Shown here: positions 6,786 to 6,898 of the stretch, in pieces | Numbering within the stretch: the stretch's first letter is position 1 | How the letters are laid out: every line of letters begins with the position of its first letter | NCBI RefSeq assembly: GCF_030013205.1 | Contig: NZ_CP122648.1 | Direction: 5' to 3' (one strand) | Source of the DNA: Escherichia coli | GTDB taxonomy: Bacteria; Pseudomonadota; Gammaproteobacteria; Enterobacterales; Enterobacteriaceae | Length of the DNA stretch: 64,000 bases | Translations under genes and position numbers: made by a program | The notes under the pieces: model-generated | What the model saw: only the letters and a program-made list of their open reading frames with translations | What the model was told of the DNA's origin: nothing | Database searches by the model: none

Positions 6786-6806
6786 AGCATATTCCTGTAT
6801 CAGTGG

Positions 6807-6898
6807 TTATTGACCATTGTCGCCTTCGCGGGTTAGCCACCAGGCCCCCAGGATCGGCAAGGTTGTTACCAACATAACCAGCAGTGCCACCACGTTGG
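6807..6898 (-). pseudogene. ydcV: 3'-terminal remnant of ABC-transporter permease ydcV (about 30 codons)
   Basis: Frame separate from ydcU encodes a C-terminal TM helix and tail ...[31 protein letters not shown], with stop 20 bp before the patD RBS; the 113 bp gap cannot hold a full permease gene. Confidence 0.55.

Follow-up and report, generated by a model that had tools for sequence, protein, structure and literature searches.

A 680-bp chromosomal deletion reduces ydcV to a 3′ remnant in the ydcSTUV-patD locus of a porcine ETEC lineage

Results

Gene content of the ydcSTUV-patD locus

The locus described here lies in a 64,000-nucleotide stretch of Escherichia coli DNA, called the window below. 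The locus corresponds to the ydcSTUV-patD operon, as it is named in PMC11052181, and its features are collected in Table 1. Gene order, orientation, and flanks are the same as those of ydcSTUV-patD in K-12 (b1440–b1444) with about 98% DNA identity, and the K-12 flanking genes are also found in the window, ydcR upstream and yncL, ortT, and ydcY downstream. The binding protein YdcS matched its family model with 815 bits in the NCBIfam search (cut-off 725), and PatD reached 1035 bits with TIGR03374 (cut-off 909). The top NCBIfam matches of YdcT were PotA and the polyamine ATPase subfamily, while YdcU gave PotB/PotH and YdcV PotC/PotI as the best families. All matches to the Pot equivalog models were below the curated cut-offs, thus the Ydc proteins are paralogues and not Pot proteins. 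According to the RefSeq records, the products of ydcS (WP_000047450.1) and patD (WP_063085540.1) are identical in the compared strains with and without the deletion described below, and that of ydcT (WP_063085537.1) is common to the deletion carriers and their intact sister strains. The product of the altered ydcU, designated ydcU*, is WP_242378934.1, which is annotated in six RefSeq genomes.

Table 1. Features of the ydcSTUV-patD locus in the window
Feature	Position	Strand	Description	Basis
ydcS	8884..10029	(-)	Periplasmic substrate-binding protein, 381 aa, intact	ORF; NCBIfam NF041888 (ABC_SBP_YdcS)
ydcT	7853..8866	(-)	PotA-like ABC ATPase, 337 aa, intact	ORF; NCBIfam
ydcU*	6899..7852	(-)	PotB/PotH-like permease, 317 aa (native 313 aa)	ORF; NCBIfam top hits PotB and PotH
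Deletion junction	6921..6923		680 bp absent, 1 bp microhomology, 0 inserted bases	
ydcV 3′ remnant	6807..6922	(-)	2 nt of codon 227, codons 228–264, and stop	
ydcV-patD spacer	6786..6806	(-)	Native 21 nt, patD Shine-Dalgarno AGGA, unchanged	
patD	5361..6785	(-)	Gamma-aminobutyraldehyde dehydrogenase, 474 aa, intact, last gene of the operon	ORF; TIGR03374

The original prediction, made from the window sequence, was that the ydcS-ydcT-ydcU string holds a single permease gene, and this was borne out, since the PotB-like YdcU* stands alone and only 37 codons are left of ydcV. Exactly 113 bp (6786–6898) separate patD from the ydcU-derived ORF, and a separate frame in this stretch encodes, as had been proposed, the C-terminal part of a second permease, namely residues 228–264 of K-12 YdcV without any difference; the length given for the K-12 protein, about 264 aa, was likewise right (264 aa). 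The same interval had been taken as the remnant itself. It does hold the ydcV tail, but the limits of the remnant are 6807–6922 and so extend beyond it. The protein sequence of the tail and the layout of the tail and the ydcV-patD spacer are the same in K-12, and the spacer showed zero mismatches to K-12.

Extent and endpoints of the deletion

To compare the ydcU-patD region with K-12 and other genomes, the 1,001 bp segment at 6400–7400 of the window was used as a query against 5,426 complete E. coli genomes, 5,413 of which gave a match. All examined full-length matches except that in ETEC1748, K-12 included, fell into two pieces spread over 1,681 bp, which corresponds to 680 extra bases. The ydcU-patD spacing of the window thus differs from that of K-12 by 680 bp, so that the loss had been recognized correctly from the sequence while its size, estimated at about 700 bp, required correction. 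Register walks against K-12 and Z142-2 showed that the left match runs through 6922 and the right match starts at 6922, and comparison with the sister strain ETEC4068 gave the same junction with a 1-bp overlap and no inserted bases. On the coding strand, the ancestral ...GGAGCGTTCG|ATGCACTCTGA... is now joined to ...CAGCTTGG|GCGACCGCG..., and the 5′ endpoint of the deletion is the A of the ydcV ATG or one base before it.

The native ydcU and ydcV genes overlap by 11 nt, therefore a deletion starting from the ydcV ATG also takes these 11 nt and, with them, the stop of ydcU. The endpoint had been predicted next to the ydcU stop, and it is indeed near the end of the gene, but it actually lies inside the coding sequence, 11 nt short of its 3′ end. 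Consequently, YdcU* consists of the native residues 1–310 followed by GDRVMYR and a stop in place of the DAL and stop that close the native protein (GAFDAL). The seven codons of GDRVMYR are read out of frame from ydcV-derived sequence, which also supplies the new stop codon (6899–6901), and about 23 nt are common to the ydcV remnant and the new 3′ end of ydcU. Compared with K-12, the window lacks residues 1–227 of YdcV, and with them five of its six predicted membrane-spanning helices and the complete region of the EAA coupling loop.

When the ancestral sequence was searched for repeats (seed 6), no pair of direct repeats enclosed the 680-bp segment. Slippage between repeats was considered and rejected: the nearest repeat, CATCGAACG, is spaced 607 bp, while the deletion is 680 bp. 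The junction offers just 1 bp of microhomology and neither a flanking repeat nor a mobile element, a picture suggestive of illegitimate end-joining or template switching, and a single illegitimate joining of this kind would have connected the 3′ end of ydcU with ydcV codon 227. The coincidence of the upstream endpoint with the ydcV start codon is treated as chance.

The ydcV remnant and the expression of patD

The ydcV remnant (6807–6922) agrees at every base with the 3′ end of the ETEC4068 ydcV. It codes only for the final transmembrane helix and the tail of the protein, and it has neither a start codon nor a ribosome-binding site of its own. The translation signals of the gene are gone, since the deletion took the ATG together with the ydcU overlap, which presumably couples the translation of ydcV to that of ydcU. 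The Pfam domain BPD_transp_1 spans residues 80–246 of intact YdcV; with only residues 228–264 left, it is incomplete, and the NCBIfam search returned zero family matches for the remnant. In the RefSeq records, PGAP describes 6807–6920 as "ABC transporter permease, incomplete; missing N-terminus", so the loss of ydcV is already flagged by public annotation as a partial pseudogene. The 37-codon tail would be an untranslated pseudogene fragment.

No promoter-like site was found at the junction, nor a terminator; the sole terminator-like site (6993–6974) belongs to native ydcU and is at chance level. As neither element was created at the junction and only 113 nt of untranslated sequence precede patD, we infer from the sequence that patD is spared and that the deletion exerts no polarity. 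The genes ydcS, ydcT, ydcU, and patD would stay expressed from the same transcript, and patD, having its own spacer and ribosome-binding site, would keep both transcription and translation.

Distribution and age of the deletion

A 101-mer spanning the junction, scored only as a complete match, was present in six of the 5,426 complete genomes (ETEC1748, 4067, 4069, 4070, 4071, and 4079), all of them porcine ETEC from pig faeces collected in Belgium or the Netherlands. The segment that they lack is single-copy sequence and is carried by 5,405 of the 5,426. The identical junction was also found in the draft assembly GCA_031958805.1, and 26 contigs, drawn from NCBI drafts and from the read-run assemblies of Logan, encode the exact 317-aa YdcU*. 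A literature search by the names of carrier strains (ETEC1748, ETEC4067, and others) found no paper.

An identical 930-bp ydcU sequence occurs in 16 complete genomes, including the six with the junction. Three of the ten non-carriers were checked, namely ETEC4068, the O139:H1 strain W13-16 from a French wild boar, and EC556 from a Japanese pig, and all three had an intact ydcV (WP_063085539.1) and identical neighbour proteins. In the shared part of the 64 kb, ETEC4068 differs from the window by seven SNPs, the 680-bp deletion, and the breakpoint of an IS91 element, a divergence of about 1 SNP per 10 kb. So few SNPs to an intact sister indicate that the deletion is recent and arose within one porcine clonal group. 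A single origin is assumed from the identity of the junction and the near identity of the flanks. Altogether, we are highly confident that the 680 bp were deleted from the chromosome recently and specifically in this clone, which belongs to a porcine ETEC lineage with O139:H1 strains among its relatives.

Compared with the closest allele outside the lineage, ydcU (its part at 6923–7852) has three synonymous and five non-synonymous changes (K16S, L27M, Y84C, Q154P, and P212L). Relaxed selection after the deletion was rejected as their source: the changes are common to all 16 genomes, only six of which have the junction, thus they predate the deletion and do not represent later decay. In the deletion clone, ydcS, ydcT, and ydcU show zero secondary decay, which fits a very recent event but could equally be expected if the remaining genes were still in use.

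Other variation in the window and its relatives

The window is ETEC4079-like, differing from that strain by one synonymous base in 14 kb. The two have in common the IS91 junction in pqqU and the substitutions mcbR A194E (window 1520) and ydcZ G63S (4218), both substitutions being common only to these two, while the synonymous base at 4130 in ydcZ differs even from ETEC4079; the window thus derives from a very near relative of ETEC4079 or from a different version of it. Positions 1–121 of the window had no match in ETEC1748 and four other carriers; in ETEC4079, they match the end of an IS91-family element, which is abutted by a pqqU remnant (about 122–1399 of the window) missing its 5′ end. The IS91 of ETEC4079 lies between pqqU and a narZ without its 3′ end, which implies an IS-associated loss of the genes between narZ and pqqU in that strain.

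Two further genes of the window are split. The BenE-family transporter gene ydcO (15546–16774, + strand) is divided into ORFs 15546–15911 and 15950–16774; since it is annotated as frameshifted both in ETEC1748 and in ETEC4068, where ydcV is intact, it represents an older pseudogene of the lineage. The ynbD gene (37735–39125, − strand) consists of the overlapping ORFs 37735–38187 and 38130–39125 and is also annotated as frameshifted in ETEC1748 and ETEC4068. In paaK (window 48583), ETEC1748 has one extra T, and a frameshift is annotated only there, while in ETEC4068 tehB (window 17902) is interrupted by an internal stop peculiar to that strain; both genes are intact in the window, and these changes are either strain-private mutations or sequencing errors.

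Discussion

The absence of most of ydcV had originally been put down either to a real lineage-specific deletion or to an assembly or engineering scar. The first of these is supported by the six separate complete genomes and the draft that share the junction and by the near-identical sister strains in which ydcV is intact. If full-length ydcV were present in the cells and had been collapsed or dropped during assembly, a common pipeline could have produced the same error repeatedly, and the six genomes with the junction, whose accession numbers are adjacent and whose samples are described in similar terms, may share one. However, the missing segment is unique, occurring once per genome in 5,405 genomes, and there is no repeat at the breakpoint. 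Moreover, ETEC4068 and ETEC4075, which belong to the same accession run and have the identical ydcU, are not among the carriers, ydcV being intact in ETEC4068, while the identical junction recurs in an unrelated NCBI draft and the 26 contigs encoding YdcU* come from sources including Logan, which assembles public sequencing runs. An assembly artefact is thus extremely improbable. If ydcV had been knocked out on purpose in the laboratory, an endpoint that coincides to the base with the start of its ATG would be accounted for, but we see virtually no chance of this: the junction is free of foreign sequence such as FRT, loxP, or a resistance cassette; nobody would design a knockout that removes 680 bp, which is not a multiple of 3, ends in codon 227, and destroys the ydcU stop; and the carriers were isolated in the field, from the faeces of pigs in two countries. 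Our preferred reading therefore remains a genuine, recent deletion in the clone.

As to its consequences, a useful reference is the spermidine/putrescine importer PotABCD (8y5f and related structures), which has the same make-up as YdcSTUV: besides a periplasmic binding protein and an ATPase, it contains two permeases that differ from each other. Among solved chains, PotC of this complex comes closest to YdcV (8y5f, E = 1e-31), and the partner permease PotB is a distinct protein there. Of a PotABCD-type set, the window has the binding protein and the ATPase, but it lacks the PotC-like partner and thereby one of the two permeases. Because YdcU and YdcV fall into distinct subfamilies of permeases and PotABCD has one permease of each kind, the YdcSTUV importer would most likely be inactivated by the loss of YdcV. 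Unlike in the case of PotABCD, the substrate of YdcSTUV is only putative: papers describe it as a putative putrescine/polyamine importer.

It is conceivable that the locus was remodelled instead: YdcS and YdcT could work with a YdcU homodimer, or ribosomes terminating at the new ydcU stop could re-initiate at a GTG and make, from the ydcV tail, a membrane peptide of about 28 aa with one helix. Homodimeric permeases such as ModB and MetI do occur among type I ABC importers, and ydcS, ydcT, and ydcU are intact in all carriers. Two in-frame GTG codons (GTG GTG) follow the new TAA at 6–9 nt, and the native 11-nt overlap of ydcU and ydcV is consistent with translational coupling. On the other hand, YdcU is PotB-like while YdcV is PotC-like, and PotC is separate from PotB in the solved structure; no Shine-Dalgarno sequence could be recognized by eye before the GTG codons, and the recency of the event, at about 1 SNP per 10 kb from an intact sister, explains the intact neighbours as well. 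Such remodelling is therefore very unlikely. The broader proposition, that YdcSTU still works through a YdcU homodimer or the re-initiated peptide of about 28 aa, or else that without the proposed YdcV channel for dsDNA the clone takes up plasmids measurably less and was selected for this in pigs, is given only a slight probability. We regard the deletion as ordinary recent pseudogenisation, with no new kind of element or mechanism involved.

The loss of ydcV is most likely neutral or nearly so, since other putrescine importers have been reported in E. coli, namely PotFGHI, PuuP, and PlaP, which would make the loss tolerable. The gene has been hit elsewhere, too. In strain 20Ec-P-124 from a Japanese pig, ydcV is broken by ISApl1 (3385–5251 of the retrieved locus), while patD, ydcU, and ydcT are kept; in QDFD216 from a Chinese dog, it is broken by TnAs1 (3908–7269 of the retrieved locus), and patD is kept. 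The mobile element is still in place in both strains, whereas the deletion in the window is clean and contains no element. These independent ISApl1 and TnAs1 insertions support the view that ydcV is dispensable.

The suggested link of ydcV to natural transformation agrees with the literature: inactivation of ydcS and ydcV lowered natural plasmid transformation 6.7-fold and 9.5-fold, respectively, and YdcV has been proposed as an inner-membrane channel for dsDNA (PMC6135910, a review citing Sun 2016 for the transformation data). If the reported role of YdcV in the uptake of dsDNA on agar is true, the carriers should transform less well. The junction provides a clean clonal marker, scorable by PCR, for this Belgian/Dutch porcine ETEC sub-clone, and the clone together with the near-isogenic ETEC4068 forms a natural pair differing in ydcV, which may serve for questions of polyamine import and transformation.
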